From an uncultured Gemmatimonadota bacterium (GTDB lineage Bacteria > JAAXHH01), in contig OX638340.1 of the NCBI GenBank assembly GCA_951812955.1, forward strand, positions 416,001 through 480,000: 64,000 bases of DNA. The letters are read 5' to 3'. The translations under genes were made by a program, and so were the position numbers. Of this stretch, positions 20,554 through 51,420 are shown piece by piece. Below the pieces are notes generated by a model. That model was not told where the DNA came from and made no database searches. It saw only the letters and a program-made list of their open reading frames with translations. How positions within the stretch are numbered: the stretch's first letter is position 1; each line of letters begins with the position of its first letter.

Positions 20554-20595
20554 TGGGCGGTGTACCTTCCCGTGCCGGTTTCCAGACCGATAAAA

Positions 20596-24811: not shown

Positions 24812-25768
24812 TCAATCGCGCAGCTCCGCCCGGATGCGGTCGGCCAGCCTCATCGTCTCCACAGCCTCCTCCAGCCCCGCCGCGGGCAGATCCACGGGCC
24901 GGTCCTCCTTGATGCAGTCGATGAGGAAGCGGGCCTGTTCGGCCGTTCCGGCGGATTCCACCGTGTCGAGCACTTCTTCTTTGCCGTCCCGCTGTACCAC
25001 TGCTCTCTTCACGCCTTCCAGGTAGGCCGAACAGTCCCTGCCGTGGATTTCATAGCGCTCCAGGCGGGCGTCCGTCGTGAAATTGGCTGTGAGCTGGGCC
25101 ACGCACCCATTTTCGAATCGTAAGAGCGCCGCGTAGACGTCGACATATCGAGAATGAGCCCTGCGGGCGACGGCATGGACTTCGGCGATGGGAGAACTGC
25201 CCGCCAGGGACCGGGTCAGGTCGATGGCGTGGATCGGCGTCTCGTAGATGAAGTTGTCCAGCAGATGGTCTGGGAAGGGCCGTTCACGCAGGCGCGTCAT
25301 GCTCTTGTGAAATTCCGCCACGATCTGGGTGACGGGTCCCCGCTCCTCGATCATGCCTCGGGCCTTGCAGATCAGGGAATGGAACCGGCGGTTCCAGCCG
25401 ACCAGCACCTTCGCTCCGGATGCGTTGGCGGCGTCGCGGAGCCCCTCGGCTTCCGCGCCCGACAGGCCGGGCGGCTTTTCAATGAGCGCGTGCACACCGG
25501 CCTGTATGACGGGCAGCGCGCATTGGCCGTTCAGGTGGGCCGGCGTCGCGACTACCGCCAGGTCCAGATCTTCCATCGACAGCATGTCCTCGATATCTTC
25601 GTATCGCCGCGGGACTGCGTTTTCCTCAGCCACCCGGTCGCGCAGTTCCTTCACCGGATCGCACACGGCCACGAACCGCAGGTCGTCGAAGGTCTTCATG
25701 GTCTCGAGATGACCGCGACCCCGCCCTCCGCATCCGATCAGGGCGGCTTTTAAGACTGTTTCCGGCAT
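24812..25768 (-). CDS. Gfo/Idh/MocA-family NAD(P)-dependent oxidoreductase
   Basis: An N-terminal Rossmann motif (KAALIGCGGRGRGH) and an EKP motif (LIEKPPGL) are present. The ATG at 25768 has a GGAG RBS. The track's TTG 25831 adds an atypical extension. Confidence 0.8.
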   Translation of the reverse strand: MPETVLKAALIGCGGRGRGHLETMKTFDDLRFVAVCDPVKELRDRVAEENAVPRRYEDIEDMLSMEDLDLAVVATPAHLNGQCALPVIQAGVHALIEKPPGLSGAEAEGLRDAANASGAKVLVGWNRRFHSLICKARGMIEERGPVTQIVAEFHKSMTRLRERPFPDHLLDNFIYETPIHAIDLTRSLAGSSPIAEVHAVARRAHSRYVDVYAALLRFENGCVAQLTANFTTDARLERYEIHGRDCSAYLEGVKRAVVQRDGKEEVLDTVESAGTAEQARFLIDCIKEDRPVDLPAAGLEEAVETMRLADRIRAELRD

Positions 25769-25847
25769 TTGGGTTGCTCCGGTTGCGGTGGTGAGCATCC
25801 TCTGCGAAGCGTATATTACTATAAGTTGCAATCACCACGGTATATTG

Positions 25848-25911
25848 CTTGACGCGTGCAATGCTAGACGCGTGCAATGATTGACGCATGCTTTGCTTGA
25901 CGCGTGCAATG
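25848..25911. promoter_or_regulatory. Four tandem 16-bp repeats (YTWGACGCRTGCWWTG), a candidate operator array in a divergent promoter
   Basis: cttgacgcgtgcaatg / ctagacgcgtgcaatg / attgacgcatgctttg / cttgacgcgtgcaatg are phased 16 bp apart. Each has a partial palindrome centred on ACGCGT. The array lies between the Gfo/Idh/MocA gene (minus) and the PhyH gene (plus). Confidence 0.5.
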
Positions 25912-25964
25912 TATCGCCATTTCTTCTGCAAGTAAACCCACCATTATCGAACGGTGATTCCTGC

Positions 25965-26702
25965 ATGCTGGATCTCGACTTTTTCAGGCAAAACGGATAC
26001 GTCAACCTCGGCCGGGTTTTCGTTGGCGAGGAATTGAACCGTTTTGTCGAACTGTACGACCAGGACCGGTCGAATCGGGGTTGCTTCTGGCATCCCATTT
26101 CCAATCACGGCCACCAGACCCTGAACTGCGAGCCCCTGATCTCCTCGCCGGAGATCGACGGACTGATCCGCCACCCCAAGTTAATCAAACCGATCGAGAC
26201 CATTTTCCAGGGCCCCAGCTGTCTCGGTGAAGTCTGCCTGCGCCACATGGTCCCGCGCGACGGCGAACCGGAGGAGATCTGGCACCGGGACCGGCCGCAT
26301 GCGAAGGACCGGCCCTACCGGTGCGGCTTCCTGCAGATGATGCTCTACCTGACCGACGTGCACGAGGGCACGCACTGCTTTTCAATCTCTCCCGAGCCCT
26401 GCGACGGTCCTGTGCTCGATACAAAAGAGCAGCTCGACCAGCGGGGCGCGGTCCATCTGCACGGACCGGCCGGTACCGTCATTCTCTTCAACCTTTCCGT
26501 GCTGCACGCCGCAACGGTTCGGATCACCCCGCACGAACGCAAGACCGTCCAGATCTACTACGGCCATCGCGATGGTCCTGTGCTGAGCGACTGTACTTTG
26601 ATTCCCACTAGTTTCTGGCGGGACCATCCCGACCCCGAGGTGCGGGGTTTCTACGGCCTGATGACCAGCCGTTCCAGGCAATATGCCGAGGCCTTTGGCT
26701 GA
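25965..26702 (+). CDS. Phytanoyl-CoA dioxygenase (PhyH) family Fe(II)/2-oxoglutarate oxygenase
   Basis: The WHRD...H facial-triad-like arrangement and PhyH-like length are present. The track's start at 25881 would overlap the repeat array, so ATG 25965 is preferred. Confidence 0.65.
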   Translation: MLDLDFFRQNGYVNLGRVFVGEELNRFVELYDQDRSNRGCFWHPISNHGHQTLNCEPLISSPEIDGLIRHPKLIKPIETIFQGPSCLGEVCLRHMVPRDGEPEEIWHRDRPHAKDRPYRCGFLQMMLYLTDVHEGTHCFSISPEPCDGPVLDTKEQLDQRGAVHLHGPAGTVILFNLSVLHAATVRITPHERKTVQIYYGHRDGPVLSDCTLIPTSFWRDHPDPEVRGFYGLMTSRSRQYAEAFG

Positions 26703-26777
26703 GTCATGGGTAGAATCAATGGCCAGGATGGGACCGTCTGTTGAGGTTGGTACAAACTGGCACAAATTGGAGAGCGA

Positions 26778-27833
26778 ATGTCGAATAAACGTCCTCAGGT
26801 ACTCATCGCATGCAGCGAACGCGTCCGAAATGGATACATGCCGCCAAAGGAACTGGCCCGTCTCGAGGAGTTTGCCGATTGGACATGGTTCCACTGCGAG
26901 GGCGGCGGGATCTACGATACCAGTTCGGATCCCGAGACCACGGTGCAACTGGCGAAGGAAATGGCCGGGGTGGACGCGCTCGTCGTCTGCCACGGCGCGC
27001 CGAGGGTTGGCGCCGAAGTCCTGGATGCCGCGCCGCGGCTCCGTTTTGTCGGCGAACTGGAAGGAGACCGTTTCGCCGCGCGGCTTGACCTGGAATCGAT
27101 GTGGTCCCGTGGCATCAGCACGATAGATACGACCAACGGCTCCACCTATCCGGTAGCGGAATGGGCCCTGGGGCTGACGCTGATCTCCATGCGCAATGCC
27201 GGGGCACTCTTTCGTAGGATCATCGAACGCAATACGCAGGATCGTGATCTCATTCAGCCCATGGCGGGCATCCTTACCGGCAAAAGAGTGGGATTGATCG
27301 GCGGCGGGCACATGGGACGGCGGCTGATGAAGCTGCTACGACCCTTCGATGTGGAATTGTGGGTCCATGATCCGTACCTGCCGCAGGAATTGCCCGAAGC
27401 GCTGGGATTCCTGCAGACCTCGCTGGACAATGTGCTTTCCAAGTGCAACGCGATCATCTGCGTGGCGCCCCTCACGCCGAAGACCCAGGGCATGATCGGG
27501 CAGCGCGAACTGGACCTCATCCCTTCTGGCTCGGTGTTCGTGAATGTTTCGCGGGGGCCGATCGTCGACTCGGCAGCCCTGATCGAGCGCCTCAAGCGCA
27601 ATGATATCGCCGCGGGGCTGGACGTTTTCGATCCGGAGCCCATCCCCGAAGACAGCGAAATCATCGGCCTGCCCAATGTTTTCCTGACACCCCACTTCTC
27701 CGGACGCACGGGTGAAGAATACCCCCACTTCTTCGGCTTCATGGTCGATGAACTGGAACGGTTCTTCTCCGGTCACGAGACCTGGTTCAACCTGACGCCG
27801 CGATCGAAAGCCAACCGCGAGGGACAATCGTGA
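26778..27833 (+). CDS. D-isomer-specific 2-hydroxyacid dehydrogenase family protein (NAD-binding)
   Basis: The GLIGGGHMGRR Rossmann motif is present. The catalytic region has the conserved R, E/D, H arrangement (VNVSRGPIVD...HFSG). Confidence 0.8.
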   Translation: MSNKRPQVLIACSERVRNGYMPPKELARLEEFADWTWFHCEGGGIYDTSSDPETTVQLAKEMAGVDALVVCHGAPRVGAEVLDAAPRLRFVGELEGDRFAARLDLESMWSRGISTIDTTNGSTYPVAEWALGLTLISMRNAGALFRRIIERNTQDRDLIQPMAGILTGKRVGLIGGGHMGRRLMKLLRPFDVELWVHDPYLPQELPEALGFLQTSLDNVLSKCNAIICVAPLTPKTQGMIGQRELDLIPSGSVFVNVSRGPIVDSAALIERLKRNDIAAGLDVFDPEPIPEDSEIIGLPNVFLTPHFSGRTGEEYPHFFGFMVDELERFFSGHETWFNLTPRSKANREGQS

Positions 27834-29269
27834 CACGACCCAATCTGCTCTACATTTTCACTGACCAGCAGCGTGCCGACACGCTGGCCTGCTACGGCAA
27901 TCACCAGATTGAAACCCCTGCGCTCAACAGACTGGCCGAGGACAGTTTCGTCTTCGAAAACGCCTACGTGAGCCAGCCCGTATGCAGTCCGGCCCGGGCA
28001 ACCATGCTTACCGGCCTCTGGCCCCACACGGCGGGCGTCCCGTCCTGCAACGTACCGCTGGCCTGCGACAAGCCGACCATCGCCGAGATGCTTCCGGCGG
28101 AATACGATACGGCCTTCATGGGGAAGTGGCACCTGGGAGACGAGATCTTCCCCCAGCACGGCTTTAAGACCTGGGTGGGTACGGAAGACCAATATCGAAG
28201 CGGATACTCGGAAACGGATCGGTTGGCCGAAGTCAGCGACTATCATCACTTCCTCGTGGATAAGGGGCACACGCCCGACATCGAGCTGCTGGGACAAAGG
28301 GTTTTTTCGAGACACTATGCGGCGTCCCTGCCCGAGGAATCCACCAAGGCATGGTACCTGGGCGAACGGGCGGCCGACTACATCAATAATCAGGGCGACG
28401 ACCCCTTCACCCTGTGCGTCAGCTACCTGGAACCCCATCCTCCGCACACCGGTCCGTTGAACGACTTCTACAACCCGGACAGCCTGCCGACCGGGCCGGC
28501 CTTCATGCGGCAGCCACCCTTCGACGCACCGCTTCTCGTCCGTTTGATGGCGGCCTTCTACATGCAGTCGGAGAACTACGGACTGGATCTGCGGACCGAG
28601 GCGGGCTGGCGGGCCTTGATGGCACGGTACTGGGGCAACGTTACCCTGGTGGACCGTTCGGTGGGGAGGATTTTGAAAGCCCTCGAAGAAAGCGGCAAGG
28701 CCGATGACACCATCGTCGTGTTCACTTCGGACCACGGAGAGTTGATGGGCGATCATGGCATCCTAGGCAAGACGCTCATGTACGAGGAGTCCATCAAGGT
28801 GCCGATGTTGCTGCGCGCGCCCATGCTGGATCACGAATCGCGACAAATCGGCGGCCGGTTCAGCCATATCGACCTCGTGCCCACCCTGATGGAGTTATTG
28901 GGCCTCGAGCGACCGGACAGGTTGCAAGGTCGAAGCCGCGTGCCCGTGCTGCAGGGGCACGAGAACCTGGATAATGATGATGTGTTCGTCGAGTGGAGCG
29001 GAGAGGACGGCCATGCGCGGGCCGGACTTGGGGAAGCCGAACCGAACCAGAGCATGGTGCATCAGAACCGGACGATCGTGACCGCGGAGGGATGGAAACT
29101 CAACCTGTACGGAAAAGGGCAGGGAGAGCTGTACGATTTGAACAACGATCCCTGTGAATTGGTGAACCTGTTTCATCGGGGTGAGCAGGCGGGACGGATC
29201 GGAGATCTGACGCAGCGGATTCGGGCGTGGCAGGAGGAGACTGGGGATGGGGTGGAGTTGGGGGTATAG
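27830..29269 (+). CDS. Sulfatase (formylglycine-dependent, arylsulfatase family)
   Basis: The CSPARATMLTG motif (C-x-P-x-R) is present, and the N-terminal LLYIFTDQQRAD is typical of sulfatases. The GTG start overlaps the upstream stop (GTGA). Confidence 0.85.
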   Translation: MTRPNLLYIFTDQQRADTLACYGNHQIETPALNRLAEDSFVFENAYVSQPVCSPARATMLTGLWPHTAGVPSCNVPLACDKPTIAEMLPAEYDTAFMGKWHLGDEIFPQHGFKTWVGTEDQYRSGYSETDRLAEVSDYHHFLVDKGHTPDIELLGQRVFSRHYAASLPEESTKAWYLGERAADYINNQGDDPFTLCVSYLEPHPPHTGPLNDFYNPDSLPTGPAFMRQPPFDAPLLVRLMAAFYMQSENYGLDLRTEAGWRALMARYWGNVTLVDRSVGRILKALEESGKADDTIVVFTSDHGELMGDHGILGKTLMYEESIKVPMLLRAPMLDHESRQIGGRFSHIDLVPTLMELLGLERPDRLQGRSRVPVLQGHENLDNDDVFVEWSGEDGHARAGLGEAEPNQSMVHQNRTIVTAEGWKLNLYGKGQGELYDLNNDPCELVNLFHRGEQAGRIGDLTQRIRAWQEETGDGVELGV

Positions 29270-29346
29270 CGATACTAGCGTCAATCTCATCTCAGTAAGC
29301 ACACTCACTGAAAGATGATCCGGAACGATACAAGGAAATCCAGAAC

Positions 29347-30153
29347 ATGGCCATGACCGACGAAGAACGCTTCCGATTCGACTTGACCGGATTTTTAGTG
29401 CGCCCGGCCATTCTCACGGCGGACGAAGTAAAAGAAATCCGAGAGCAGATCTACCTGATCAAGCACGATCCGGAGTCGCTCCCGCCCGAACATCGAGACG
29501 TCCCCGGTGGACCGTCGAGCATTCTAATCGATCATCCCGCTGTCATCGACGTCATCTCGGAGATCATCAGTCCCGATTTTCGGCTGGAGAACTGCAGTTG
29601 TGTCTGGCGCAATAAGGGGGAAGAACACGGGGAACTTCACGGCGGGGGTCCCAACCAGATCGATCCCATTTTTGGCTACCGCGTGCAGCGGGAACGCATC
29701 TATGCTGGTATGGTCCGGGTGATTTTCGAGTTTACGGATATAAAAATGGAGGACCAGAGCACGCACTTCGTGGTAGGCAGCCACAAGGCCAACTTCCCCA
29801 TGCATCCAGATCACAAGTCGTTGGAGCCTGGGAAACGGAGTGATTTCCTGATGACTTATGCCTGTCCCGCAGGCAGCGCTGTGTTCTTCACCGAGAACCT
29901 GTGTCACGCCGGCCCCAAGTGGAACCGGGACGAGCCCAGGGTTACCGTCCTCAACGCCTATTCCCACCTGGCCACCCACTGGCACCGGTTGAAAACTCCG
30001 CCAGAGGTCATTGCTGGGCTGCCTCGCGAGAAGCAGGTCTACTTCCGCGAAACGTGGATCGCCGATTTTCGATCGAATCCTGCCACGATCAATACAGCGG
30101 AACGCTTCCTGGGCAACGACGAACCGCCCATAGACTCGGATAACGAACCCTAG
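29347..30153 (+). CDS. Phytanoyl-CoA dioxygenase (PhyH) family protein, second copy
   Basis: 268 aa with a PhyH-like HxD...H arrangement (HGGGP...H). Confidence 0.7.
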   Translation: MAMTDEERFRFDLTGFLVRPAILTADEVKEIREQIYLIKHDPESLPPEHRDVPGGPSSILIDHPAVIDVISEIISPDFRLENCSCVWRNKGEEHGELHGGGPNQIDPIFGYRVQRERIYAGMVRVIFEFTDIKMEDQSTHFVVGSHKANFPMHPDHKSLEPGKRSDFLMTYACPAGSAVFFTENLCHAGPKWNRDEPRVTVLNAYSHLATHWHRLKTPPEVIAGLPREKQVYFRETWIADFRSNPATINTAERFLGNDEPPIDSDNEP

Positions 30154-30211
30154 AATCAATCCTTGAAAGTATGGGGCCGGTTGGGTTGGATGCCTGGTCC
30201 GCTACAGCACG

Positions 30212-31429
30212 CTAGGGCCTTACGATGCTGCCATCCGCCCTCCGGTCCTCCGCGGCATAGCGCGGCATAGCCGCATCCTCTGCGTCCAGCAACCTGGCCG
30301 CTGCGTCCTCGTCGATGTCCAGCCCCAATCCCGGATTGTCGTTCGCGTAGAGATGCCCGTCCGCCAGCACGCACGCCCCGGGGAACGCCGCGTATTCCGA
30401 TTCGCTGAAGGTGTTCTCTTCCTGGATCCCGAAGCTCCAGCTTGACATGTCGAGATGAACGGCCGCGGCCTGGTTGACCGGGTCGTTGTCTCCCCCTTCC
30501 TGCCAGGCCGTGTTGATGCCGAAGGATTCGCACAGGTTCGCGATCTTCCGGCACGGGGTGATGCCGCCCGCCTTGGAAACCCGTACCCGGACGTAATCGA
30601 TCAGGCGCTCGGTGATGAGGGGCGTCCATTCGTGGGGATTCACGAAGAGTTCGCCCATGGCCTGCGGCGTCGTGCATTGCTCCCGAATCAGGCGGTACCA
30701 CTGGACCTGCTCGGGGGACAGGACGTCCTCCAGAAAGAACAGGCGGTAGGGTTCGAGGCGCTTGGACAGGGCGACAGCGGACTGGGGCCGCAGGTGCTCG
30801 TGGACGTCATGGGTCAGTTTGGGGCCGAATCCGAGCTTCGAGCGCAGATACTCGAACATGTTCGGAATGGCCTCGATGTAGGCCTCGTCGTCGAAGACCT
30901 GGTCTGCGGGCCAGGCGTTGGCGGGGCGAGGTGCGTCTTCCGATGGAATGAACCCCCCGCCGCCGTAACCACCCAGCTGGCAGCGGACCACAGGAAACCC
31001 TTCATCAAGGTAGCCCTGTATGGCTTCCAGCAGGGTTTCGGGGGTACCACCGCCCGCGTGGGCGTAGCAGGGGACGGCGCTCCGGCAAGCGCCGCCCAGG
31101 AGCTGGTAGACGGGCATCCCCGCCTCCTTGCCCTTGATGTCCCACAGCGCCATGTCGATGCCGCTCAGAGCCGTGTTGGTGATGGCCCCGTTCCGCCAGT
31201 ACCCGCTCGTGTAGAAGGTCTGCCAGATGTCCTCGATGCGGCTGACGTCGCGGCCGATGAGTTTCGGGGCCAGCATGGACTCGATGGCCTCGATGACGGC
31301 GCCCTGGTGGTAGTGGTCGCTCGCCGATCCGATGCCGTGCAGTCCGGGCTGGTTCGTGGTGATCTTGACGATGCCCCAGGTTCCGTTCGATCGCGTCCGG
31401 ATACACTTCACCCCGGTGATGGTGGTCAC
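30212..31429 (-). CDS. Enolase-superfamily dehydratase, mandelate racemase subgroup (D-mannonate / D-galactonate dehydratase ManD-like)
   Basis: 405 aa. The N-terminal capping domain (ITGVKCIRTRSNGTWGIVKITTNQPGLHGIG) and the barrel-domain metal ligands are typical of the ManD family. Confidence 0.8.
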   Translation of the reverse strand: MTTITGVKCIRTRSNGTWGIVKITTNQPGLHGIGSASDHYHQGAVIEAIESMLAPKLIGRDVSRIEDIWQTFYTSGYWRNGAITNTALSGIDMALWDIKGKEAGMPVYQLLGGACRSAVPCYAHAGGGTPETLLEAIQGYLDEGFPVVRCQLGGYGGGGFIPSEDAPRPANAWPADQVFDDEAYIEAIPNMFEYLRSKLGFGPKLTHDVHEHLRPQSAVALSKRLEPYRLFFLEDVLSPEQVQWYRLIREQCTTPQAMGELFVNPHEWTPLITERLIDYVRVRVSKAGGITPCRKIANLCESFGINTAWQEGGDNDPVNQAAAVHLDMSSWSFGIQEENTFSESEYAAFPGACVLADGHLYANDNPGLGLDIDEDAAARLLDAEDAAMPRYAAEDRRADGSIVRP

Positions 31430-31522
31430 GTTCCGCTCCTTGGATTGCGGTGTAGTTGCAGTCGCACGGCTTGTGTTGAATCTGTGTTGGACCAGTGTTT
31501 CGGATGCTACGGGCTACGGTGT

Positions 31523-32293
31523 CTAATCGGCCGTTACCCGCTCGCCGTCCATGAGAAAGGGCTCCGCGTTGCTCCAGTTTCGTGTCCCGTCCTCTGTGAG
31601 GATCGGTTCCGCCGAGTACTGGGTCAGGTATACGCGACGCCAGCCGTCTGAGGTATTCGTACTGCTTCTGTGGAAGGAGACGCTGGAGAATACCAGGATA
31701 CTTCCGGCCGGCGCGACCACCGGTATGCCGGGATCATCGCCGTAATAGCCTATCTTGTCGTTGGATTCATCCAGGATGCTGTGTTCCTGCCGGTGCCGGG
31801 TCCCCGCACGGGAGAAGGGCAGGACATAGACCGTGCCGTTTTCCTCGTTCACGTCGTCCAGGGCGGCCCAGCAGCTCATGTAGGGCCGGTGGTCGAATCC
31901 CACGTAGCCCGAATCCTGGTGCCAGCCGAACTTCATGCCGACTTCGGGTCCCTTCACCACGAACTGCTCATGGAACAGGTAGGCGGTGGGTCCCAGGGTG
32001 CTCCGGCAGATTTCGGCCATGAGATCGCTGAAAATGTACGGACGCAGGCTGGGGTTCTCCCGGTGCCGATTGGAAACGAAGTACCTCTTGCCCTTGTGAT
32101 TGATTCCCCGTGTGGTCTCGTCTGCCTCGGCCATCTGGGCTTCCATTTCCTCGGTCAGCCGATCGCACTCGCCGCGTATGTACGCCAGCATCGCGTCGTC
32201 CATGGCCGACTCGAGGATGAAGTACCCTTCCTCTTGGTACTGCTCTTTCTGTTCTACCGTTATTTCGACAGGTTGCGCCTTGGTTTCCGTCAT
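31523..32293 (-). CDS. Phytanoyl-CoA dioxygenase (PhyH) family protein, third copy
   Basis: 256 aa. The WHQD...H motif is typical of PhyH-family Fe/2OG oxygenases. Confidence 0.7.
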   Translation of the reverse strand: MTETKAQPVEITVEQKEQYQEEGYFILESAMDDAMLAYIRGECDRLTEEMEAQMAEADETTRGINHKGKRYFVSNRHRENPSLRPYIFSDLMAEICRSTLGPTAYLFHEQFVVKGPEVGMKFGWHQDSGYVGFDHRPYMSCWAALDDVNEENGTVYVLPFSRAGTRHRQEHSILDESNDKIGYYGDDPGIPVVAPAGSILVFSSVSFHRSSTNTSDGWRRVYLTQYSAEPILTEDGTRNWSNAEPFLMDGERVTAD

Positions 32294-33051
32294 TATCCCC
32301 GTCCTATGTAGGGCATGGTCGTCGCCATGACTGTTATGAACTGTACGTTGGCGTCAAGGGACAAACCGGCCATGAAGACGATGGCGTCGGCCACGTTCTT
32401 CACGTGCATCCGCGCCTCGGCCACCAGGTCGCCGCTCGGCTGCAGGATGCCCTCTTTCATCCGCTCCGTCATTTCCGTGGCCGCGTTGCCGATGTCGATC
32501 TGGCCGCAGGCGATGTTGTATTTCCGGCCATCGAGGGAAGTCGAACGCGTCAAACCGGTTACGGCGTGTTTCGTAGCCGTGTACGGCGCCGAATTCGGCC
32601 GCGGCACCTGGGCGGAAACCGACCCGTTGTTGATGATCCGGCCGCCTTGCGGGTCCTGGTCCTTCATGATCTTGAAGGCTTCCCTGGTACAAAGGAAGGA
32701 ACCGGTCAGGTTGACGTCCACCACGGTCTGCCACTGTTCGGCCGTCAGTTCCTCTAGGAGTACCGCGGGCGCGCCGGTTCCCGCATTGTTGAACAGCAAG
32801 TCCAGCCGTCCGTAGGCCGCCTTTGTTTCGGCGAAGAGACGTTCGACCTGCGAAGCATCGCCCACGTCCGTTGGGACGACGACCAGTCGATCCGCGGCGT
32901 CGCCGGCTTCGGTCACGGTCGACTCCAAAGCTTCCCTTCTCCTTCCAGCAAGTACCACGCTGAAGCCCGCGTCAAGCAGGGCGAGGGAACAGGCCTTGCC
33001 TATCCCGGAACCCGCCCCGGTCACTACGGCGACTTTCTTACCTGCGCTCAT
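32293..33051 (-). CDS. Short-chain dehydrogenase/reductase (SDR)
   Basis: The TGAGSGIG cofactor motif and the YxxxK catalytic motif (YTATKHAV) are present. Confidence 0.85.
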
Positions 33052-33278
33052 GCTGTGCTCCTATCTCAGGTGTAGATACAATGTTTATACGTCCCTCAGT
33101 TAATTTTACATCCATTTGGTTCTCGGTTATTCGTCCATCAGTTTACCGGGTATATACGTCGATCATCGCTATGGTCATGCTGTTTGTCGATTCGTCTCTG
33201 CAACTAACAAATCCGGGATGGCTCCTGCAATCTTTTTTCACGAATACGGGTCCGCTGCGTCATGCTCGGCATCATACA

Positions 33279-34352
33279 TCACGAATACGGATCCGCTGCG
33301 TCGCGCAAGGCGTCTCCCAGGAAGTTGAAGGCTATGACGACGACCAGGACGGGGGCTGCGGGAAACAGCAGCCATGGATGGTTGAGCAGCACGGTCACCC
33401 GCTGCGCTTCCTCGAGCAGGACGCCCCAGCTGGTCATGGGAGGCCGGATGCCCAGTCCGAGAAAACTCAGGGCGGTTTCGCCCAGGATCATGCCGGGGAT
33501 GGCCAGTGTGGCCACGACGATGATGTGGCTGTAGCACCCGGGCATCAGGTGGCGCGAGATGATGTACCAGTGTCCCGCGCCAGCAGACCGCGCTGCCGTG
33601 GTGTAATCCTGTTCCCGGAAAACGAGGACCTTGCCCCGGACTTCGCGCGCCAGGCCGCCCCAGCTGATGATGGACAGGATGATGGTGATGCCCAGGTAGG
33701 TTTCGATACTCGTCCACCCGGCCGGTAGCGCAGCCCCGAGGGCCATCCAGAGCGGAATTGGCGGAAAAGACGCCAGGATTTCGACGACACGCTGCAGGGC
33801 GTGGTCTATCCAGCCACCGAAGTACCCTGACAGCGTGCCCAGGACGGAGCCCAGGATCAGGCTGAGGAAAACGCCGATGATTCCTACCGTGAGGGAGACC
33901 CGGGCGCCGTGGAAGATGCGCGAGAGCAGGTCGCGCCCCATGCGGTCCGTACCGAGCAGGTACATGGGACCCGCTGAATGGACCAGCCGGAAGTCTCCGC
34001 CCCCGTCACGCGACAGAAACCGGACCGGGAACCGTTGAGAACGGTCCGTCTCGTACTCCAGTTCCAGCGTTTCCGGGTTCTGCGTGGAAGTCAGTCCGTT
34101 GACGTAGAACCCGGCGGACCAGTCGAAATGCAAATCCTGGGGTGGAAGATATCGGACCTGGATCCGGATGTCGTTGTGGTCGTACGGGGAGAAAAAACCG
34201 GCGAATAACGCCACCAGGTAGAACAGTCCCAGGATCGCCCCCGCCGCGATCCCCATGCGGTTCTTCCGGAACCGACGCCAAATCAGCGTGCGGTAGCTCA
34301 GATAGCCCGCATCCCGGACCGTTTCTGCCTGATCGACCGTGGTCGTAGTCAT
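33279..34352 (-). CDS. Peptide/nickel ABC transporter permease (DppC/OppC type)
   Basis: It has the BPD_transp_1 core with an N-terminal OppC extension. Other dpp genes flank it. Confidence 0.85.
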   Translation of the reverse strand: MTTTTVDQAETVRDAGYLSYRTLIWRRFRKNRMGIAAGAILGLFYLVALFAGFFSPYDHNDIRIQVRYLPPQDLHFDWSAGFYVNGLTSTQNPETLELEYETDRSQRFPVRFLSRDGGGDFRLVHSAGPMYLLGTDRMGRDLLSRIFHGARVSLTVGIIGVFLSLILGSVLGTLSGYFGGWIDHALQRVVEILASFPPIPLWMALGAALPAGWTSIETYLGITIILSIISWGGLAREVRGKVLVFREQDYTTAARSAGAGHWYIISRHLMPGCYSHIIVVATLAIPGMILGETALSFLGLGIRPPMTSWGVLLEEAQRVTVLLNHPWLLFPAAPVLVVVIAFNFLGDALRDAADPYS

Positions 34353-34356
34353 GGGT

Positions 34357-34440
34357 TTGCTCCGCTTGCGCCGCTTACTCCGAGAACGCTTGCTCCGCTT
34401 GTTCCGCTTAGTCCGCTTGCTCCGCTTTGTCCGCGAACGC
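34357..34440. repeat. Array of about eight imperfect 9-bp tandem repeats (minus-strand unit CAAGCGGAG) in the dppB-dppC intergenic space
   Basis: The plus strand reads gctccgcttg cgccgcttac tccgagaacgcttg ctccgcttg ttccgctta gtccgcttg ctccgcttt gtccgcg. It contains in-frame stops, so it is untranslated. It sits inside an operon. Confidence 0.5.
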
Positions 34441-34466
34441 TGCCATTCATTAAAAGGCCAACTGCA

Positions 34467-35453
34467 CTAGTCATATCGTATCCTCGGATCCGCCCAGGCC
34501 AGCGCGATGTCGGCCAGGATATTGCCGATGATCAGAAGCAGGCTGAACATCATCAGCAGGGTACCCGCCAGGTAAATGTCCTCGGCGACCAGGGCCCGTA
34601 GCAGCAGCGGCCCCACGGTAGGCAATCCCAGGACGATCGCCACGATCGTGGCCCCGGAGAGGATGTTGGGCAGGCTCATGCCCAGGATCGTGATCAGCGG
34701 ATTGATGGCGATGCGCGCCGCGTGCTTTATGACGACGACGGATTCCTTAAGGCCCTTGGCGCGGGCTGTCTGCACGAAAGGCTGGCCCAGGACGTCCAGC
34801 AGGTTGCCGCGCATGATACGCATGAGCCCGGCCGTGCCGTTGATGCCCACCACGATGACCGGGATCCAGAGGTGCTTCAGGAAATCGACAAGCTTGTCCC
34901 ATGTCCATGGCGCTCCTTCGTACTCGCTCGAGAAAAGCCCGAACAAGGGTATCCTGTAGATCTCGAACACGAAGACCAGGAGGGCCAGGGCCAGCAGGAA
35001 ACCCGGCATGGACATGCCGATGAAGCTGATGAAGGACAGCACGTTGTCGGATAGACGGTACTGGTGGGTGGCCGAGTAGATACCGATGGGTATCGCCACG
35101 GCGTAGGTGAACATCAGGGCGCCCAGGGCGATGAGCACGGTAAAGGCAAGCCGGTCCCAGATCAGCTGGTTGACTTCCTGCTCGTATTCGAAGGACTCGC
35201 CGAAATCGCCCACGACGAACCCTGATATCCAGTCCACGTACTGCCGCCACATGGGCTGGTCCAGGCCGTAACGTTCGCGAAGTTCATCGATGCGCGCGAT
35301 GGAGCTGCTGTCACCGTACATTTCTTCCAGCTCCTGGATCTTGCGGTCCAGGAAATCACCCTCCGGCAACTGGATGATGACGAACCCTATCATCGATATG
35401 GCCAGGAGGGTCGGGATGGCGAGGAGACAGCGCTGTATGACGTAATGGATCAT
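34467..35453 (-). CDS. Peptide ABC transporter permease (DppB/OppB type)
   Basis: 328 aa. The typical N-terminal TM helix plus BPD_transp_1 domain are present. Confidence 0.85.
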   Translation of the reverse strand: MIHYVIQRCLLAIPTLLAISMIGFVIIQLPEGDFLDRKIQELEEMYGDSSSIARIDELRERYGLDQPMWRQYVDWISGFVVGDFGESFEYEQEVNQLIWDRLAFTVLIALGALMFTYAVAIPIGIYSATHQYRLSDNVLSFISFIGMSMPGFLLALALLVFVFEIYRIPLFGLFSSEYEGAPWTWDKLVDFLKHLWIPVIVVGINGTAGLMRIMRGNLLDVLGQPFVQTARAKGLKESVVVIKHAARIAINPLITILGMSLPNILSGATIVAIVLGLPTVGPLLLRALVAEDIYLAGTLLMMFSLLLIIGNILADIALAWADPRIRYD

Positions 35454-35518
35454 GGGTTAACCAGGGGACAGGCCGCGGTCCATGGACTGCCCGGCATGCG
35501 GTATGTGTGATCATCCCT

Positions 35519-37477
35519 TCAGTCGATGTAAAACTGCTCGGGGAAACTCGTCGCGGGACCCGCGATGGCCCACGGGCCGAGTATTCCGCTGTCGGGTACG
35601 TTATGGAAGTTGTTCTTCACGATGACGGGCTTGGGCGTACGAGCTACCGTGCCCAGATGAAAGGGTCCATGTTCGATGTGGATCCGCACGGCGTCCTGTA
35701 CCAGCCGATGACGGGCGTCCAGGTCCTTCTCCCGCTTGATCCGGTCGTAGATATCGAGCAGTGCGACCATGACGCCCGTGGGCGCCTCGCCCTTTTCGCC
35801 GCCCGTTTCGTACCACTTGCCCACCTTGGGATGCCAGTATTTCCCAGACGTTGGAAACACCCAGTCGGGGTAGGTGAACAGGTCCATTTCCGCCTCGCCG
35901 TGGAGATGGGCGGTGAACTCGCCGAGGTCGCGACGCAGTTTCAATTCGGCGCCGGGTGGCGTATAGACTAGGACGTCCAGTCCCAGTTCCCGCCAACCCT
36001 CGGCCACGATCAGGGCGACGTCATTCTCGTGGGCGATGTGCGCCGCCGCCGGCGCGTCCAGCACGAGGGTCAGCCGCTGGCCATCGGGACGAACCCGGTA
36101 CCCTTCGGCGTCACGGCGGGTAAGCCCCATCTCGTCGAGCAGCCTGTTCGCCATTTCCAAGTCGAATTCCGCGTCGGTAGCCTTCCACAGGTCGAAGAGC
36201 CGTGCGCCCTCCGTGTCCAGGAAATGCCAGCCTTCCTCGCTCACGGTGGCGCCCTGGGGCTCCACCAGGCCCTTGAAGGCGACGGCGTTGCATTTCTCGC
36301 GGTCGATGGCCGCGGCGAGGGCCTTCCGGAATCGCTGGTCTCGTATCAGGCCGCGGAGGACCGGGTCGTTGTCCGACCAGTTGAGGTTGATCGCGGGATC
36401 CGCGCCGGATGCACTCTCCCACAATTTGACCCGGTATCCGCCCTTTTCCCGGCTTTCCATGAAGAGCGAGAAGTCCCGCAGGTCGAGATCACGGAACTGG
36501 CAGTCCACTTCTCCGGCCAGCACCCGCAGGACCCGGATCTGAGACTCAGGGACCAGGGTCGTAACCACCCTGTCGATATAAGGCAACTGGCGCCCGTTGT
36601 CATCCACGACGTAGTAGTAGGGGTTGCGTTCCAGGATCACCCGGAATCCGCCCTTCTCGATGCGGGAGATCGTCCACGGCCACAGGGAAGGCTTTTCCGG
36701 GTTGCGCTGGGGCAGCCTGTGCTTCTCGTATAACACGAAGTCGTCCACCCCGGCGTTGTGGTCCGGATGGAACTGCTTCATGTAGTGTTCCGGCACGTTA
36801 TACTCTTCGCTCCACCAGAAGCCGGTCGCCAGCCACAGGGGCACGAGCCAGTTGGGCCCGGCGAATTTCATGACGATGGTGTAGTCGTCCGGTGTTTCCA
36901 CCTCCATGGGCTTGCCGTCCACGAGACACCACACGGGCGGCGGGTAACGGTGTCGGTCGTCGAGACACAGGTCGTACCACGCGCGGAAGGAAGCCGAAGT
37001 AAAGGGATGGCCATCGGACCACCGCACGCCCTCACGCAGTTTGAGGGTCAGCGCCGTGCCGTCCTCGTTAAACGCCCACGATTCCGCCAGGCCGGGCTCG
37101 AGGCCCGTGGTCATCCGGTTCCAACGGATCAGCGGGGCGTATCCGGCGATCATCTTCCAGGTGCCGAGGTCCGTATTGTTGTGCAATTGACGCCAGGTCC
37201 CGCCGTAGACTCCGGGACCATCGTACCCTTCGTAATCATTTTTGGCCACGAGCGGGTTGGCGGGGATCCGTTCGTGAAGGGGCGGCAGGTTGCCCTCAGC
37301 TACCCGGGCGGCCAGTTGTGGCGCTTCCAGCGACGAGCGGGCCGATGCGTCGGAAACCGGTACGTCCGATGCGGGTCCGCCGCCATTGCCGGTACAGGCC
37401 AGCAGTCCGGTCAGGGCAATAAGAGGCAGGTAATTCAGTATCTCTCTCGTTCTTCGTCTCATCCGTGACTCCAACAA
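35519..37477 (-). CDS. ABC transporter substrate-binding protein, family 5 (oligopeptide/dipeptide-binding)
   Basis: 652 aa with a signal peptide and lipobox-like LLACTG. It has SBP_bac_5 architecture. Confidence 0.85.
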   Translation of the reverse strand: MLESRMRRRTREILNYLPLIALTGLLACTGNGGGPASDVPVSDASARSSLEAPQLAARVAEGNLPPLHERIPANPLVAKNDYEGYDGPGVYGGTWRQLHNNTDLGTWKMIAGYAPLIRWNRMTTGLEPGLAESWAFNEDGTALTLKLREGVRWSDGHPFTSASFRAWYDLCLDDRHRYPPPVWCLVDGKPMEVETPDDYTIVMKFAGPNWLVPLWLATGFWWSEEYNVPEHYMKQFHPDHNAGVDDFVLYEKHRLPQRNPEKPSLWPWTISRIEKGGFRVILERNPYYYVVDDNGRQLPYIDRVVTTLVPESQIRVLRVLAGEVDCQFRDLDLRDFSLFMESREKGGYRVKLWESASGADPAINLNWSDNDPVLRGLIRDQRFRKALAAAIDREKCNAVAFKGLVEPQGATVSEEGWHFLDTEGARLFDLWKATDAEFDLEMANRLLDEMGLTRRDAEGYRVRPDGQRLTLVLDAPAAAHIAHENDVALIVAEGWRELGLDVLVYTPPGAELKLRRDLGEFTAHLHGEAEMDLFTYPDWVFPTSGKYWHPKVGKWYETGGEKGEAPTGVMVALLDIYDRIKREKDLDARHRLVQDAVRIHIEHGPFHLGTVARTPKPVIVKNNFHNVPDSGILGPWAIAGPATSFPEQFYID

Positions 37478-37493
37478 TCGAATTTTTGGCCGG

Positions 37494-38492
37494 TCAAACG
37501 CCCTGGAGAGACAGCGTGTCGCTGTAATGGCACGCCGCTTCGACGCCTCCGGGGTAGGTCTTCAGCGGGGGATCGGACTCCCGGCACAGGTCGGTTGCGT
37601 ATCGACACCTCGGATGGAAATAGCACCCTTTCGGCGGCGATGCGGGATCGGGCACGTCGCCGGGCAGGGCGATGCGCTTCCGTTTCTTCTGCACCGCGGG
37701 ATCGGCCACCGGCACGGCGGAGATCAGGGCCTCCGTGTATGGGTGGAGCGGGTTGTGGTAGACCTGTTCGGAGGGACCCGTTTCCACGATCCGGCCCAGG
37801 TACATGATCGCCACCCGGTCGCTGATGTGCTGCAGCACGCTCAGGTCGTGCGTGATGAAGATATAGGACAGGTCCAGGCGGTCCTTGAGCGAGACAAGCA
37901 GGTTCAGAATCTGTGACTGGACCGATACGTCCAGCGCCGATACGGGTTCGTCCGCTATGACCAGTTCCGGCCTCAGGGAAAGAGCCCGGGCGATGCCGAT
38001 GCGCTGGCGCTGGCCACCGCTGAAGGCGTGAGGATAGCGTCGCATGTCCGCTGCGTTCAGTCCCACGTCCGCCAGCAAGCCGGCTACTTGGTCTTCCAGC
38101 TCCGACCCCCGGGCCAGCCCGTTCACACGAAGGGGTTCCCCCACGATATCACCCACCGTCATCCGTGGATTGAGGGAGGAATTCGGATCCTGGAACACCA
38201 TCTGCATCCGGCGCCGGTAGGGCTTCATTCCACGCCGGTCAAGGGAGCTCAGATTCGCCTTCTCCGCACCGAAGTAAATATCGCCCTCCGTGGACGGGAT
38301 CGTCTTCAGCACGCAGCGTCCCAGGGTGGTCTTGCCGCAACCGCTTTCGCCCGCCAGTCCCAGGGTCTCCCCTGCGTCGCAGTGGAGATCCACGCCGTCC
38401 ACTGCCCGGACGTCGCCCCGCTTGCGGCGCCATAGCCCCTTGCGGACAGGGTAGTATTTCTTCAGGTTCCGCACCTCGAGAATGGTGGACAT
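37494..38492 (-). CDS. Peptide ABC transporter ATP-binding protein (DppF/OppF type)
   Basis: Walker A (GESGCGKTT), ABC signature ([15 protein letters not shown]) and Walker B are present, plus the C-terminal oligopeptide-transporter domain. The start is taken at MSTILEV (38492). The track's 38648 start adds an implausible Cys/Arg-rich extension. Confidence 0.8.
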
Positions 38493-38657
38493 GACGGGTG
38501 CTCCGTGGACATCTGCGTCTGGATGGATGAGGGCGCCGGTTGCTTCGAGGCCTGGTGGCGCTGCATGCTGGCGAACAAAACGGCAATCGCCGAAACACAG
38601 GTGGCCGGTCCTGCAAGCGGCCTGCCCACAAGCGGCCCGGGCCCGCAAACGGTCGGC

Positions 38658-39662
38658 CTATCGATCCAGAGCTACGCGTTCAACGTGCCAGCACCGTGCG
38701 CGGTGCCCTTCTGTAATTTCCTCTAACATTGGTTCCGTGGTGCACTGCTCCGTGGCGTACCGGCAACGAGGCGCGAATGCGCAGCCCTTCGGCAAGTTGA
38801 GCGGCGAGGGAACCGTACCCGGTATCGTAGACAGCATGGATGCCCTTTCTCGATTTATCCGCGGCGCCGAATCGAGCAGTCCCCTGGTATACGGATGGGC
38901 AGGATGGTAGAAGATCCTTTCGGGCGAGCCGGTTTCGACCACCTGCCCAGCGTACATGATCATGATTTCGTCGGCCATGTCGGCGATCACCCCCAGGTCG
39001 TGTGTGATCATCAGGATGGCCATATTATGGCTTTTCTGGAGTTCTCTCAGCAGGTCGAGGATCTGGGCCTGGATCGTCACGTCCAGCGCCGTGGTGGGCT
39101 CGTCGGCGATCAGCAGTTCGGGACCGCACGACAGGGCCATGGCGATCATGGCGCGCTGCCGCATGCCGCCGGACAATTCGTGGGGGTACTCATCCACCCG
39201 CTGCCGCGCACCGGGTATGCCGACCTCGGAAAGGGCCTGCACCGCGCGGGAACGGGCATGCTCCCGGTCCATGCCGTGGTGCAGGCGGAGGGCTTCGCCT
39301 ATCTGGTTCCCCACGGTGTATACCGGGTTGAGGGCGGTCATGGGTTCCTGGAAGATCATGGCGATTTTTCGGCCCCGGATTCTCCGCATTTCATCGCCAT
39401 TCTGCTCGAGATCGTGAATCCCGATGCCTGAACCGCCTTCCCGATCGTGAAGAACGATCTCTCCTTCCACGTAACCCGGTCTGGGAACCAGGCGCATCAG
39501 GGACAGCCCCATCATGCTCTTGCCGCAGCCGCTTTCACCGACCACACCGAGTGTTCTGCCTCGCCTGATCTGAAACGAAACGTCGCGCACGGCCCGGACG
39601 GGACCGTCGTCTGTGGGGATTATGGCGGACAGGTGCGATATATCGAGAAGGAGGTCGTGCAT
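38658..39662 (-). CDS. Peptide ABC transporter ATP-binding protein (DppD/OppD type)
   Basis: Walker A (GESGCGKS), signature LSGGMRQRAMIAMAL and Walker B are present. Confidence 0.85.
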   Translation of the reverse strand: MHDLLLDISHLSAIIPTDDGPVRAVRDVSFQIRRGRTLGVVGESGCGKSMMGLSLMRLVPRPGYVEGEIVLHDREGGSGIGIHDLEQNGDEMRRIRGRKIAMIFQEPMTALNPVYTVGNQIGEALRLHHGMDREHARSRAVQALSEVGIPGARQRVDEYPHELSGGMRQRAMIAMALSCGPELLIADEPTTALDVTIQAQILDLLRELQKSHNMAILMITHDLGVIADMADEIMIMYAGQVVETGSPERIFYHPAHPYTRGLLDSAPRINRERASMLSTIPGTVPSPLNLPKGCAFAPRCRYATEQCTTEPMLEEITEGHRARCWHVERVALDR

Positions 39663-39828
39663 ACAAGTTCATTGTAACGCCCTGTTCGAAGGGATGTCAA
39701 GGTGTACGGACGGTGGAGGCAGTGTAATTTTGAAGAAACCGGGGCGCTGGTTTGTAAGACTTAAAACTGTATTCTCTCATTCAACCCAAACGGATCTACC
39801 AGGTCTGGATTTATTCAAGGAGTCGAAT

Positions 39829-48663: not shown

Positions 48664-48711
48664 TGTTTTTGACTTCTGACAGGTCGCACACTGTAAGGGA
48701 TTCGTGATACC

Positions 48712-49701: not shown

Positions 49702-49709
49702 ACGGGATC

Positions 49710-51389: not shown

Positions 51390-51420
51390 AAAACAAGACG
51401 GACCATCGCGGAAGACCAAC

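Follow-up and report, generated by a model that had tools for sequence, protein, structure and literature searches.

What could bring together three Fe(II)/2-oxoglutarate oxygenases of the PhyH family, a sulfatase, an enolase-superfamily dehydratase, several dehydrogenases and a complete ABC importer? This question is raised by positions 24,812 to 39,662 of a 64,000-nt stretch of DNA, here called the window, from an uncultured Gemmatimonadota bacterium (assembly GCA_951812955.1, contig OX638340.1, positions 416,001 to 480,000, forward strand). A sequence-only reading had described this block as an accessory-looking catabolic unit for a sulfated, hydroxylated or N-methylated substrate, for instance a sugar acid or an osmolyte. 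The explanation that we prefer, with a confidence somewhat short of even, is that two adjacent, separately transcribed modules would import a decorated carbohydrate, strip off its decorations and catabolise it oxidatively in the cytoplasm. Judged by the protein families involved, the substrate would most likely be a sugar, uronate or aldonate carrying O-methyl and/or sulfate groups, or a short oligosaccharide built from such units.

Gene content and transcription units

Every gene on the earlier list was recovered at its coordinates by a six-frame listing of open reading frames (ORFs) together with Pfam and NCBIfam scans. Gene content, gene order, conservation and family assignments are reported here as observed. 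The block consists of the following genes:

24812–25831 (ORF; likely start 25768, set after the 318-aa gene called in the relative L001), minus strand: Gfo/Idh/MocA NAD(P) oxidoreductase (Gfo), Pfam GFO_IDH_MocA and C-terminal domains
25965–26702 (ORF from 25881), plus strand: PhyH1, Fe(II)/2-oxoglutarate oxygenase, Pfam PhyH
26778–27833, plus strand: D-isomer-specific 2-hydroxyacid dehydrogenase (2-HADH), Pfam 2-Hacid_dh and 2-Hacid_dh_C
27830–29269, plus strand: sulfatase, Cys-type (formylglycine) S1, Pfam Sulfatase and SGSH_C
29347–30153, plus strand: PhyH2, HygX-like Fe(II)/2-oxoglutarate oxygenase, Pfam PhyH, convergent with the ManD-like gene
30212–31429, minus strand: ManD-like dehydratase of the enolase superfamily, Pfam MR_MLE_N and MR_MLE_C, last gene of the minus-strand operon
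31523–32293, minus strand: PhyH3, homologue of FJS/PHYHD1-type O-demethylases, Pfam PhyH
32293–33051, minus strand: classical SDR oxidoreductase, Pfam adh_short
33279–34352, minus strand: ABC permease of the OppC/DppC type, Pfam OppC_N and BPD_transp_1
34467–35453, minus strand: ABC permease of the OppB/DppB type, Pfam BPD_transp_1_N and BPD_transp_1
35519–37477, minus strand: family-5 solute-binding lipoprotein of 652 aa, Pfam SBP_bac_5
37494–38648 (ORF; likely start 38492, set after the 332-aa gene called in L001), minus strand: ABC ATPase of the OppF/DppF type, Pfam ABC_tran and oligo_HPY
38658–39662, minus strand: ABC ATPase of the OppD/DppD type, Pfam ABC_tran and oligo_HPY, first gene of the minus-strand operon

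The strands and the spacing of these genes define three transcription units, and the block consists of two modules, not of one operon. The minus-strand unit runs from the two ATPase genes over the genes of the binding protein and the two permeases to those of the SDR, PhyH3 and the ManD-like enzyme, with a gap of 228 bp behind the permeases. PhyH1, 2-HADH, sulfatase and PhyH2 form the plus-strand unit, and gfo is a separate, divergent gene. Overlaps exist between the SDR stop and the PhyH3 start (1 nt) and between the 2-HADH stop and the sulfatase start (4 nt). Two elements were found in the intergenic sequence:

39671–39700, minus strand: promoter-like site TTGACA-18-TACAAT with 11 of 12 consensus matches, directly upstream of the first ATPase gene
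25846–25925, no strand assigned: four tandem 16-bp units (TGCTTGACGCGTGCAA) in the divergent intergenic region between gfo and PhyH1, found by repeat search

Promoter-like sites were not in excess in the scanned region (4, compared to 4.8 in shuffled sequence), therefore the site at 39671–39700 is suggestive by its position alone. Terminator-like sites were modestly enriched (21 versus 12), and none lies at an informative boundary except behind the gene of an aminotransferase that flanks the block. Among all fetched loci, the 16-bp motif occurs only in a 96%-identical relative (L100); the array may be a putative operator array. The other repeat families resemble chance matches or coding motifs held in common. 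A scan of the whole window with Rfam gave zero matches, so it holds no known riboswitch.

The clustering of the three PhyH genes stood up as well. With diverse PhyH seeds, phmmer found no further PhyH gene among the 48 ORFs of the window, and at random placement three such genes would fall within six consecutive ORFs of 48 with a chance of about 0.025. This test is suggestive only, and the synteny data given below weigh more. As to the accessory look of the block, the GC content is flat throughout (0.59–0.63) and no compositional island appears in the GC and skew profile, so that composition gives no sign of it.

A conserved right module and a clade-specific left module

For the synteny comparison the ManD-like gene served as anchor. 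We fetched 80 species-representative loci with 10-kb flanks and mapped all proteins of the block onto them, dividing the block into a right module (29347–39662: Dpp-type importer, SDR, PhyH3, ManD-like enzyme and PhyH2) and a left module (24812–29269: Gfo/Idh/MocA, PhyH1, 2-HADH and sulfatase). A close clade comprises 19 metagenome-assembled genomes (MAGs) in which the ManD-like protein is 91–98% identical. Their records are labelled "Gemmatimonadetes", "Candidatus Latescibacterota" or "bacterium", and several are complete chromosomes of 3.7–3.9 Mb. Bin names such as APA_bin and IRC1_bin point to sponge metagenomes, hence the lineage, whose phylum label is uncertain, is probably sponge-associated. 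In 19 out of 19 of these loci the right module is collinear, together with the gene of a flanking HisC-like aminotransferase, as far as the fetched stretch reaches (L013 is a short contig); L022 and L023 carry about 5 kb of inserted sequence between the genes of permease and SDR. Several relatives have a 213-aa ORF without Pfam match between the ManD-like gene and PhyH2 (L001, 10970–11611; L012, 11225–11866), at a place where the window has a gap of 59 bp.

Four distant MAGs (L031, L032, L049 and L052, with the titles uncultured bacterium, Latescibacterota, Gemmatimonadota and Zixibacteria among them) keep the order importer, SDR in part, PhyH3, one variable gene, ManD and PhyH2, at 62–83% identity. 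The SDR gene is kept in the close clade and in L031, and the core common to all four is without it. These loci add a xylose-isomerase-like TIM barrel, two more MR_MLE genes, a 56% Gfo orthologue (adjoining PhyH2 in L049), a fourth PhyH and an RraA-like aldolase. Sulfatase and HADH genes were found in none of the four.

The left module behaves differently. It lies within 10 kb in 11 of the 19 close-clade loci, and the distance from PhyH2 to the sulfatase gene ranges from 78 bp in the window up to more than 8 kb. Two of the loci without left module within 10 kb have genes for a reverse transcriptase and a type I restriction-modification system after PhyH2 (L012, 13368–21175; L015, 12356–21180), and in L001 an N6/N4 methylase and an AAA ATPase are inserted between gfo and PhyH1 (2212–6453). 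The module junctions, between gfo and PhyH1 and just past PhyH2, look like recurrent insertion hot spots for defence-type genes, which argues against a single operon. In a second scan we used the sulfatase as anchor on metagenome contigs. HADH, PhyH1 and Gfo were linked to it only at a sulfatase identity of at least 80% (L100 and L101); a 73% orthologue has GH109-like, Gfo and MR_MLE genes as neighbours, and a 66% orthologue has a GH2 gene and one for a PhyH-domain protein.

To judge from these comparisons, the right module is a conserved unit and the left module a neighbour specific to the clade, composed of gene families of the same kinds. The idea of a catabolic unit with its own importer is thereby supported, and synteny narrows it down: importer, PhyH3, ManD-like enzyme and PhyH2 are co-conserved in four distant lineages, whereas sulfatase, 2-HADH, PhyH1 and Gfo travel along in close relatives only.

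The ManD-like gene was also followed beyond these loci. In Poribacteria, 16 out of 19 loci have PhyH genes at no more than 10 kb from its orthologue; in an annotated one (L036) it is close to two Gfo genes, to three PhyH genes from other subfamilies and to the gene of a BNR protein. A TRAP transporter with TAtT (TPR-protein) component is located directly upstream of the ManD-like gene in L080 (6261–9981) and similarly in L033 and L065, all from MAGs labelled Gemmatimonadetes or Latescibacterota. These contexts suggest a carboxylate as substrate. In a Caldilineaceae MAG (L077), a 65% HADH orthologue is encoded directly upstream of the ManD-like orthologue.

One may ask whether the block is mere juxtaposition, that is, a mosaic of independently acting genes from expanded families in which only the operon from the importer to ManD is a real unit. 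We regard this as possible, but rather doubtful. PhyH, MR_MLE, Gfo and sulfatase genes are numerous in these lineages, tandem PhyH genes occur in one of the fetched loci (L003, see below), PhyH domains are hugely expanded in Poribacteria, where they make up more than 1.9% of the genes (PMC3909097), and PhyH1, PhyH2 and the sulfatase each have other neighbours outside the close clade. Insertions of defence genes between the two modules are tolerated, and a shared regulator is not present. However, a mosaic does not fit well with the persistence of the order PhyH2-ManD-PhyH3-importer in the four distant MAGs at the identities given above, with the lack of PhyH genes elsewhere in the 64 kb, or with the overlapping stop and start codons of neighbouring genes; moreover, the family combinations recur in cultured sphingomonads, as described below, and beside sulfatase orthologues.

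The importer and its binding protein

The importer is of the Opp/Dpp type by its composition (Pfam): one family-5 binding protein, two permeases and two ATPases with oligo_HPY domain. The binding protein has the lipobox LLAC, and with the DppA and OppA models it scores far below the cut-offs. Its full-length matches in the PDB are "OppA" of T. maritima (5IPW, E 2e-81) and SPH1118 of Sphingomonas (E 6e-65), followed by an alpha-galactoside binder, a chitin-oligosaccharide binder and, more weakly, a mannoside binder. SPH1118 is annotated as oligopeptide-binding, but binds unsaturated trigalacturonate and pectin and hardly peptide mixtures (PMC9314435). Both proteins are large (about 69–72 kDa); SPH1118 of Sphingomonas sp. 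A1 has an additional role in chemotaxis, and no cognate transporter has been defined for it. By these similarities the binding protein is probably saccharide-binding and the importer not one for peptides. The "peptide-type" importer of the sequence-only reading is thus correct as to the Opp/Dpp family, but a peptide is unlikely to be what it carries.

The three PhyH oxygenases

The three PhyH proteins had been taken for paralogues with probably distinct substrates. BLASTP shows no pairwise similarity among them (E > 0.3); by sequence they belong to unrelated subfamilies and are no paralogues in any recent sense. Since they come from unrelated subfamilies, they should differ in specificity, which agrees with the second part of that claim.

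PhyH3 is 56% identical over its full length (249 aa, E 2e-105) to the Poribacteria PHYH family protein of PMC12709175, 44% to FJS, and 42–44% to the FJS, Acidisoma and Sphingomonas enzymes (FJS-family sequences from Supplementary Table S2 of that paper). The iron triad and 2-oxoglutarate region is present in the form of WHQDSGY (HxD), FHRSS and RRVYL, and aligns with the FJS-family sequences. By similarity and motif PhyH3 is an FJS/PHYHD1-type homologue, for which O-demethylase activity is predicted. In vitro, FJS converts 2'-O-methyl-nucleosides to nucleosides and formaldehyde in a 2-oxoglutarate-dependent reaction, with a kcat of 0.04–0.11 per s and a Km of 0.5–0.9 mM; it is inactive on 3'-O-methyl nucleosides and on nucleotides (Stonkus et al., NAR 2025, PMC12709175). 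The Poribacteria enzyme is active by complementation, as it rescues growth on 2'-O-methylcytidine and 2'-O-methyluridine (PMC12709175).

These data could also mean that the locus salvages modified nucleosides, PhyH3 stripping the 2'-O-methyl group from imported nucleosides. This is the sole activity demonstrated for the subfamily, and PhyH3 is a rather close relative of the enzymes that have it. Yet, genes for nucleoside hydrolases, phosphorylases, deaminases and nucleoside transporters are missing from the block and from its conserved relatives; what is conserved alongside PhyH3 is a dehydratase for acid sugars and a binding protein of the saccharide type, and in Novosphingobium the PhyH3-like gene is found in a glucuronate cluster. 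The poor kinetics of FJS are consistent with a side activity. We consider nucleoside salvage unlikely.

PhyH2 has HygX as best PDB match by sequence (22–24% identity) and as top Foldseek match (TM 0.55–0.62, with a PhyH2 model of pLDDT just 78). HygX is characterised by an unusual H-x-G...E-x3-H metal motif in place of HxD/E...H (PMC13374393) and oxidises sugar carbons adjoining oxygen (PDB 4XC9/4XCA; PMC13374393). The same motif is found in PhyH2 as H98-x-G100 ... E183-x3-H187 (LHGGG ... TENLCH), with the acidic ligand relocated, and is invariant in 45 homologues. The HxG motif might also be read as that of a halogenase, but this was ruled out by the relocated, invariant acidic ligand, which is as in HygX. 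The family is small, with 51 representatives at E<=1e-30 among 1.84 billion 50% clusters. Among the best 120 matches the homologues are 69–96% identical and come from MAGs labelled Chloroflexi, Latescibacteria, Poribacteria and Zixibacteria. In every context examined PhyH2 is accompanied by catabolic enzymes and importers, and biosynthetic genes for orthosomycins or aminoglycosides were not found there.

PhyH1 has the canonical HxD...H arrangement, with H107-R108-D109, H181 and R192 invariant in 49 homologues. Its AF2 model is of high quality (pLDDT 96); the nearest folds are generic, namely proline and leucine hydroxylases, SnoN and EctD at 18–20% identity, and neither PDB nor NCBIfam returned a sequence match. 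Homologues of PhyH1 are found in variable, often sugar-related neighbourhoods.

These folds bear on a further explanation, in which a modified amino acid, a peptide or an acyl-amino acid would be the substrate, a hydroxylated or sulfated peptide-like compound taken up by Dpp-type import, with PhyH1 as an amino-acid hydroxylase and with participation of an acylase (22315–24654) and the aminotransferase (39613–41079) that flank the block. Both flanking genes are syntenic in close relatives but absent from the distant conserved loci, and the acylase gene has its own promoter-like site. The importer does belong to the Opp/Dpp family, and proline and leucine hydroxylases and EctD are indeed the best folds for PhyH1, although at just 18–20% identity; the nearest characterised relative of the binding protein, however, does not bind peptides, and the ManD subgroup acts on acid sugars. 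A substrate of this kind therefore appears improbable to us.

As an observation on the PhyH family itself, L003, a metagenomic chromosome of 6.6 Mb, holds a near-tandem run of five PhyH genes with one nucleotidyltransferase gene interposed. Three of the five encode proteins of 268 aa like PhyH2, and a sixth PhyH gene is located a few kb away (7293–12530 and 20246–20807 for the six genes together), a local expansion of the family.

Dehydratase, dehydrogenases and sulfatase

The ManD-like protein reaches 365 bits with the NCBIfam model for ManD (NF043051, cut-off 550) and 356 bits with PRK15072 (cut-off 430), and is also below the cut-off of the galactonate-dehydratase family. Its best PDB matches, at about E-120, are 4IHC, 3TW9 and 3T6C, enzymes of the ManD subgroup; this subgroup acts on acid sugars. 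The residues D207, H209, E233, E259, R148 and Y154 are invariant in 37 sequences and presumably represent, as in the ManD structures, metal ligands, the His general acid and the Tyr/Arg base. The score below the ManD cut-off is a correction to the designation as ManD-type dehydratase. Homologues are 70–98% identical across the 80 loci and across phyla, which makes one conserved substrate probable.

Among the dehydrogenases, Gfo remains below all NCBIfam equivalog cut-offs, with sugar or inositol dehydrogenases as best partial matches; the nearest solved relatives of 2-HADH are PGDH, 2-ketogluconate reductase and glyoxylate reductase, and those of the SDR are the uncharacterised structural-genomics SDRs 4DYV and 4DRY.

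The sulfatase (PF00884, E 5e-53) carries the formylglycine motif C-S-P-A-R (VCSPARATMLTG), which fits the type I (S1) pattern C/S-x-P-x-R and bears out its designation as a formylglycine sulfatase. No signal peptide was detected, and the domain starts at residue 4, which points to a cytoplasmic enzyme. Carbohydrate sulfatases and phosphonate-monoester hydrolases are the nearest solved structures. An exact search for the sulfatase in an index of public assemblies returned no record. The score with the choline-sulfatase model TIGR03417 is 196 bits at a cut-off of 433, and those with the arylsulfatase models are also below their cut-offs.

This result, together with the corresponding one for the EctD model (TIGR02408, cut-off 336 bits; 35.6 bits for PhyH3, no match for PhyH1 and PhyH2), leaves very little room for catabolism of choline-O-sulfate, an ectoine derivative or another osmolyte, which had been connected to a BCCT transporter gene nearby. 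A sulfatase and PhyH-family enzymes, the family of EctD, are present, and so is the BCCT gene in the window (13162–14748), but this gene is 10 kb off, separated from the block by the gene of a TonB-dependent receptor and by another five to six that are unrelated, and genes for betaine or choline dehydrogenases are not present. We consider this idea highly improbable. Rhizopine or opine catabolism was considered as well and dropped, as there was no specific match.

Recurrence in cultured sphingomonads

A tblastn search with PhyH3 against plasmids led to two sphingomonad megaplasmids. In Novosphingobium sp. EMRT-2 (L119, NZ_CP039697.1, 107800–126546) a 45% homologue is surrounded by genes for an aldo/keto reductase, an LLM oxidoreductase, a mannitol-dehydrogenase-family protein, UxaC and a GntR regulator, further by a ManD named so by PGAP, an MFS transporter, GH31, an alpha-glucosidase and a TonB-dependent receptor. 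In pKN1 of Sphingobium yanoikuyae a 41.5% homologue is part of the arrangement aldo/keto reductase, LLM oxidoreductase, PhyH, MFS transporter, sulfatase and TonB-dependent receptor, in which it shares an operon with the MFS transporter and sulfatase genes; a Gfo/Idh/MocA gene adjoins in divergent orientation. Both partners, ManD (39%) and sulfatase (30%), are family relatives of the block proteins and no orthologues. The recurring combinations of FJS-type PhyH with ManD and hexuronate genes, and of FJS-type PhyH with sulfatase and Gfo, support a carbohydrate role, and as a lead they point to demethylation of O-methyl uronates or sugars. Apart from this, uxaC, the mannitol-dehydrogenase-family gene and ManD give EMRT-2 a complete-looking hexuronate set in a culturable host.

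A possible route for a decorated carbohydrate

Coming back to the import and oxidative catabolism of a decorated carbohydrate, the steps might be as follows. The SPH1118-like family-5 lipoprotein would bind the decorated substrate and hand it over to the Dpp-type ABC importer. In the cytoplasm, PhyH3 would hydroxylate an O-methyl group, which is then released as formaldehyde, and PhyH2 would oxidise a second C-H next to oxygen on the sugar, for instance at another ether or acetal. Where present, the cytoplasmic formylglycine sulfatase, a clade-specific addition together with the rest of the left module, would cut off a sulfate ester. Redox steps by Gfo, SDR and HADH could lead to an aldonate, with Gfo and HADH interconverting hydroxy and keto forms of the acid sugar. 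The ManD-like enzyme would then dehydrate the aldonate to a 2-keto-3-deoxy acid, which may enter central metabolism via genes located elsewhere.

We prefer this route because several lines of evidence converge on it. The operon layout, with overlapping stop and start codons and a strong -35/-10 pair before the first ATPase gene, and the order of the right module, kept in 19 close relatives and in four distant MAGs that carry extra sugar-type genes, speak for a functional unit. The substrate class is suggested by the relationship of PhyH3 to the 2'-O-methyl demethylase of Poribacteria and to FJS, by the motif and fold that PhyH2 has in common with HygX, an enzyme acting on sugar carbons, and by a binding protein whose nearest characterised relative binds oligogalacturonides and not peptides. 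The ManD-like orthologues behind a TRAP (carboxylate-type) transporter, or near Gfo and PhyH genes in Poribacteria, fit to this, as do the same family combinations in Novosphingobium and Sphingobium and beside the 66–73% sulfatase orthologues. The route also agrees with the framework of Lim et al. 2023 (PMC10444878), in which enolase-superfamily enzymes of SAR202 paired with dehydrogenases are proposed to form parallel non-phosphorylative pathways for sugars and sugar acids, and which mentions O-methylation and sulfation as the relevant origins of diversity among carbohydrates. Of the modified substrates listed by the sequence-only reading, a sugar or sugar acid is the most plausible class, given the SPH1118-like binding protein and the proximity of PhyH3 to sugar-ring O-demethylases. 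Nothing points to an N-methylated compound, and an O-methyl group is the better-supported target.

Several observations weigh against this route. No regulator, glycoside hydrolase, formylglycine-generating enzyme, glucuronate isomerase (uxaC) or fructuronate reductase (uxuB) was found in the block or among the Pfam-scanned ORFs of the window, and the block has no lactonase, 2-keto-3-deoxygluconate (KDG) kinase or aldolase. Thus, the isomerase and reductase genes of the canonical hexuronate pathway (UxaC-UxuB-UxuA/ManD) are not beside the dehydratase, whereas in Novosphingobium both accompany the PhyH3-like gene. What has been shown for the PhyH3 subfamily is activity on nucleosides and not on free sugars, and FJS is slow; the folds nearest to PhyH1 are those of amino-acid hydroxylases. 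The linkage of left and right module is limited to close relatives and interrupted by defence islands at the junctions, the neighbours of PhyH1 and PhyH2 homologues are very variable, and beyond the close clade, the four distant MAGs and the Poribacteria a PhyH gene occurs within 10 kb of the ManD-like gene in just 3 of the remaining 38 loci. Finally, the evidence is entirely comparative, and it is from this that we infer the identity of the substrate, the order of the steps and every catalytic assignment.

A wider interpretation, which we put forward as speculative and rather doubtful, is that PhyH Fe(II)/2-oxoglutarate oxygenases form a general bacterial toolkit stripping ether decorations off carbohydrates, where PhyH3 would demethylate an O-methyl sugar or uronate and the HygX-like PhyH2 would oxidatively cleave another ether, or an acetal. 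PhyH, sulfatase and enolase-superfamily genes are unusually numerous in sponge symbionts and in further uncultured bacteria of marine origin (Latescibacterota, Chloroflexota), and the PhyH expansion in Poribacteria was reported by Kamke et al. 2014 without a function. The locus makes this question testable, as it provides a compact conserved context in which a close homologue of a proven sugar-ring O-demethylase and a HygX metal site are linked to a dehydratase for acid sugars and an importer of the saccharide type. Ether stripping from sugars, if true, would open methylated carbohydrates, which belong to the poorly degradable marine organic matter, to enzymes in a new way and give the bacterial relatives of human PHYHD1 a likely native role. 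A PhyH toolkit of this kind would provide a methylated-sugar route parallel to the P450 of algal-polysaccharide degraders and explain the expansion in Poribacteria and other sponge symbionts. If not true, this is an ordinary sugar-acid cluster beside genes with no assigned function.

Comparison to known systems

Acid-sugar routes of the ManD subgroup reportedly lead from glucuronate over D-mannonate to KDG, and L-gulonate and L-idonate are said to be used via low-efficiency ManD/GlcD (work ascribed to Wichelecki and colleagues, 2014). The block resembles these pathways in grouping a ManD-type dehydratase with NAD(P) dehydrogenases and an importer of its own, and in that TRAP-linked orthologues exist. 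It differs by the lack of UxaC and UxuB, by a score below the ManD equivalog cut-off and by having two Fe/2-oxoglutarate oxygenases as conserved partners; we know of no described ManD pathway that contains such oxygenases.

With regard to these oxygenases, PhyH3 is a full-length homologue of the FJS/PHYHD1 demethylases with the same HxD...H motif region, but it is a demethylase by prediction, and its gene neighbourhood suggests a sugar or sugar acid rather than a nucleoside. PhyH2 shares the rare H-x-G...E-x3-H metal-binding arrangement with HygX and the orthosomycin orthoester synthases. In contrast to HygX, to which it has 22–24% identity and a TM of about 0.55–0.6, it has Arg in the position of Lys137 and stands in a catabolic, importer-linked context where glycosyltransferase and antibiotic genes are not present.

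The sole carbohydrate O-demethylase system described is a cytochrome P450 (PMC6292453, PMC10033563), which demethylates 6-O-methyl-D-galactose in porphyran use. As there, a methyl ether would be removed oxidatively as formaldehyde before normal catabolism. However, the enzyme of the block is an Fe/2-oxoglutarate dioxygenase of predicted activity and not a P450 with redox partners, and the block is a cytoplasmic ABC-linked cluster, unlike the polysaccharide utilisation locus of Bacteroidota. Similar to SAR202 (PMC10444878), an enolase-superfamily dehydratase is paired with NAD(P) dehydrogenases in uncultured marine heterotrophs; different from it, the block adds decoration-removing enzymes (sulfatase and PhyH oxygenases) and a specific importer, and belongs to another bacterial lineage.

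Thus, ManD-type acid-sugar clusters and sulfatases in sugar utilisation are known already. What seems to be new is the conserved coupling of FJS-type and HygX-type oxygenases with a ManD-like dehydratase, which is not a described pathway: in the literature we found no description of these two oxygenase types coupled with such a dehydratase and a saccharide-type Dpp importer, and nothing relevant on PhyH together with sulfatase and sponge.

Neighbouring genes and further observations in the window

The acylase gene at 22315–24654, which adjoins gfo, encodes a protein of the penicillin-amidase family (Ntn hydrolase) with an N-terminal lipoprotein-like signal, preceded by the promoter-like site mentioned above, and is syntenic with gfo across the close clade. 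On the other side, the HisC-like class I/II aminotransferase is encoded divergently from the ABC operon (ORF 39613–41079, likely start 39829) and has a Tat-like leader (RRGFMKGALAAG); it is syntenic in all close relatives and not found in the distant conserved loci. A MocR-type regulator, considered for the same ORF, was ruled out by the HisC-like sequence, the Tat-like leader and the later true start.

A second sugar-flavoured region extends from 46583 to 55610 of the window. Besides another Gfo/Idh/MocA protein it encodes a permease like OppC, one more family-5 binding protein, a DUF2961 protein and an MFS transporter. The third Gfo gene is located at 59082–60161. Two long ORFs, 10575–13112 (845 aa) and 3434–4822 (462 aa), gave zero Pfam matches. 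At 60207–61876, a gene of the PNP_UDP_1 phosphorylase superfamily adjoins a VitK2_biosynth gene; the pair looks like part of the futalosine route to menaquinone, with no relation to the block.

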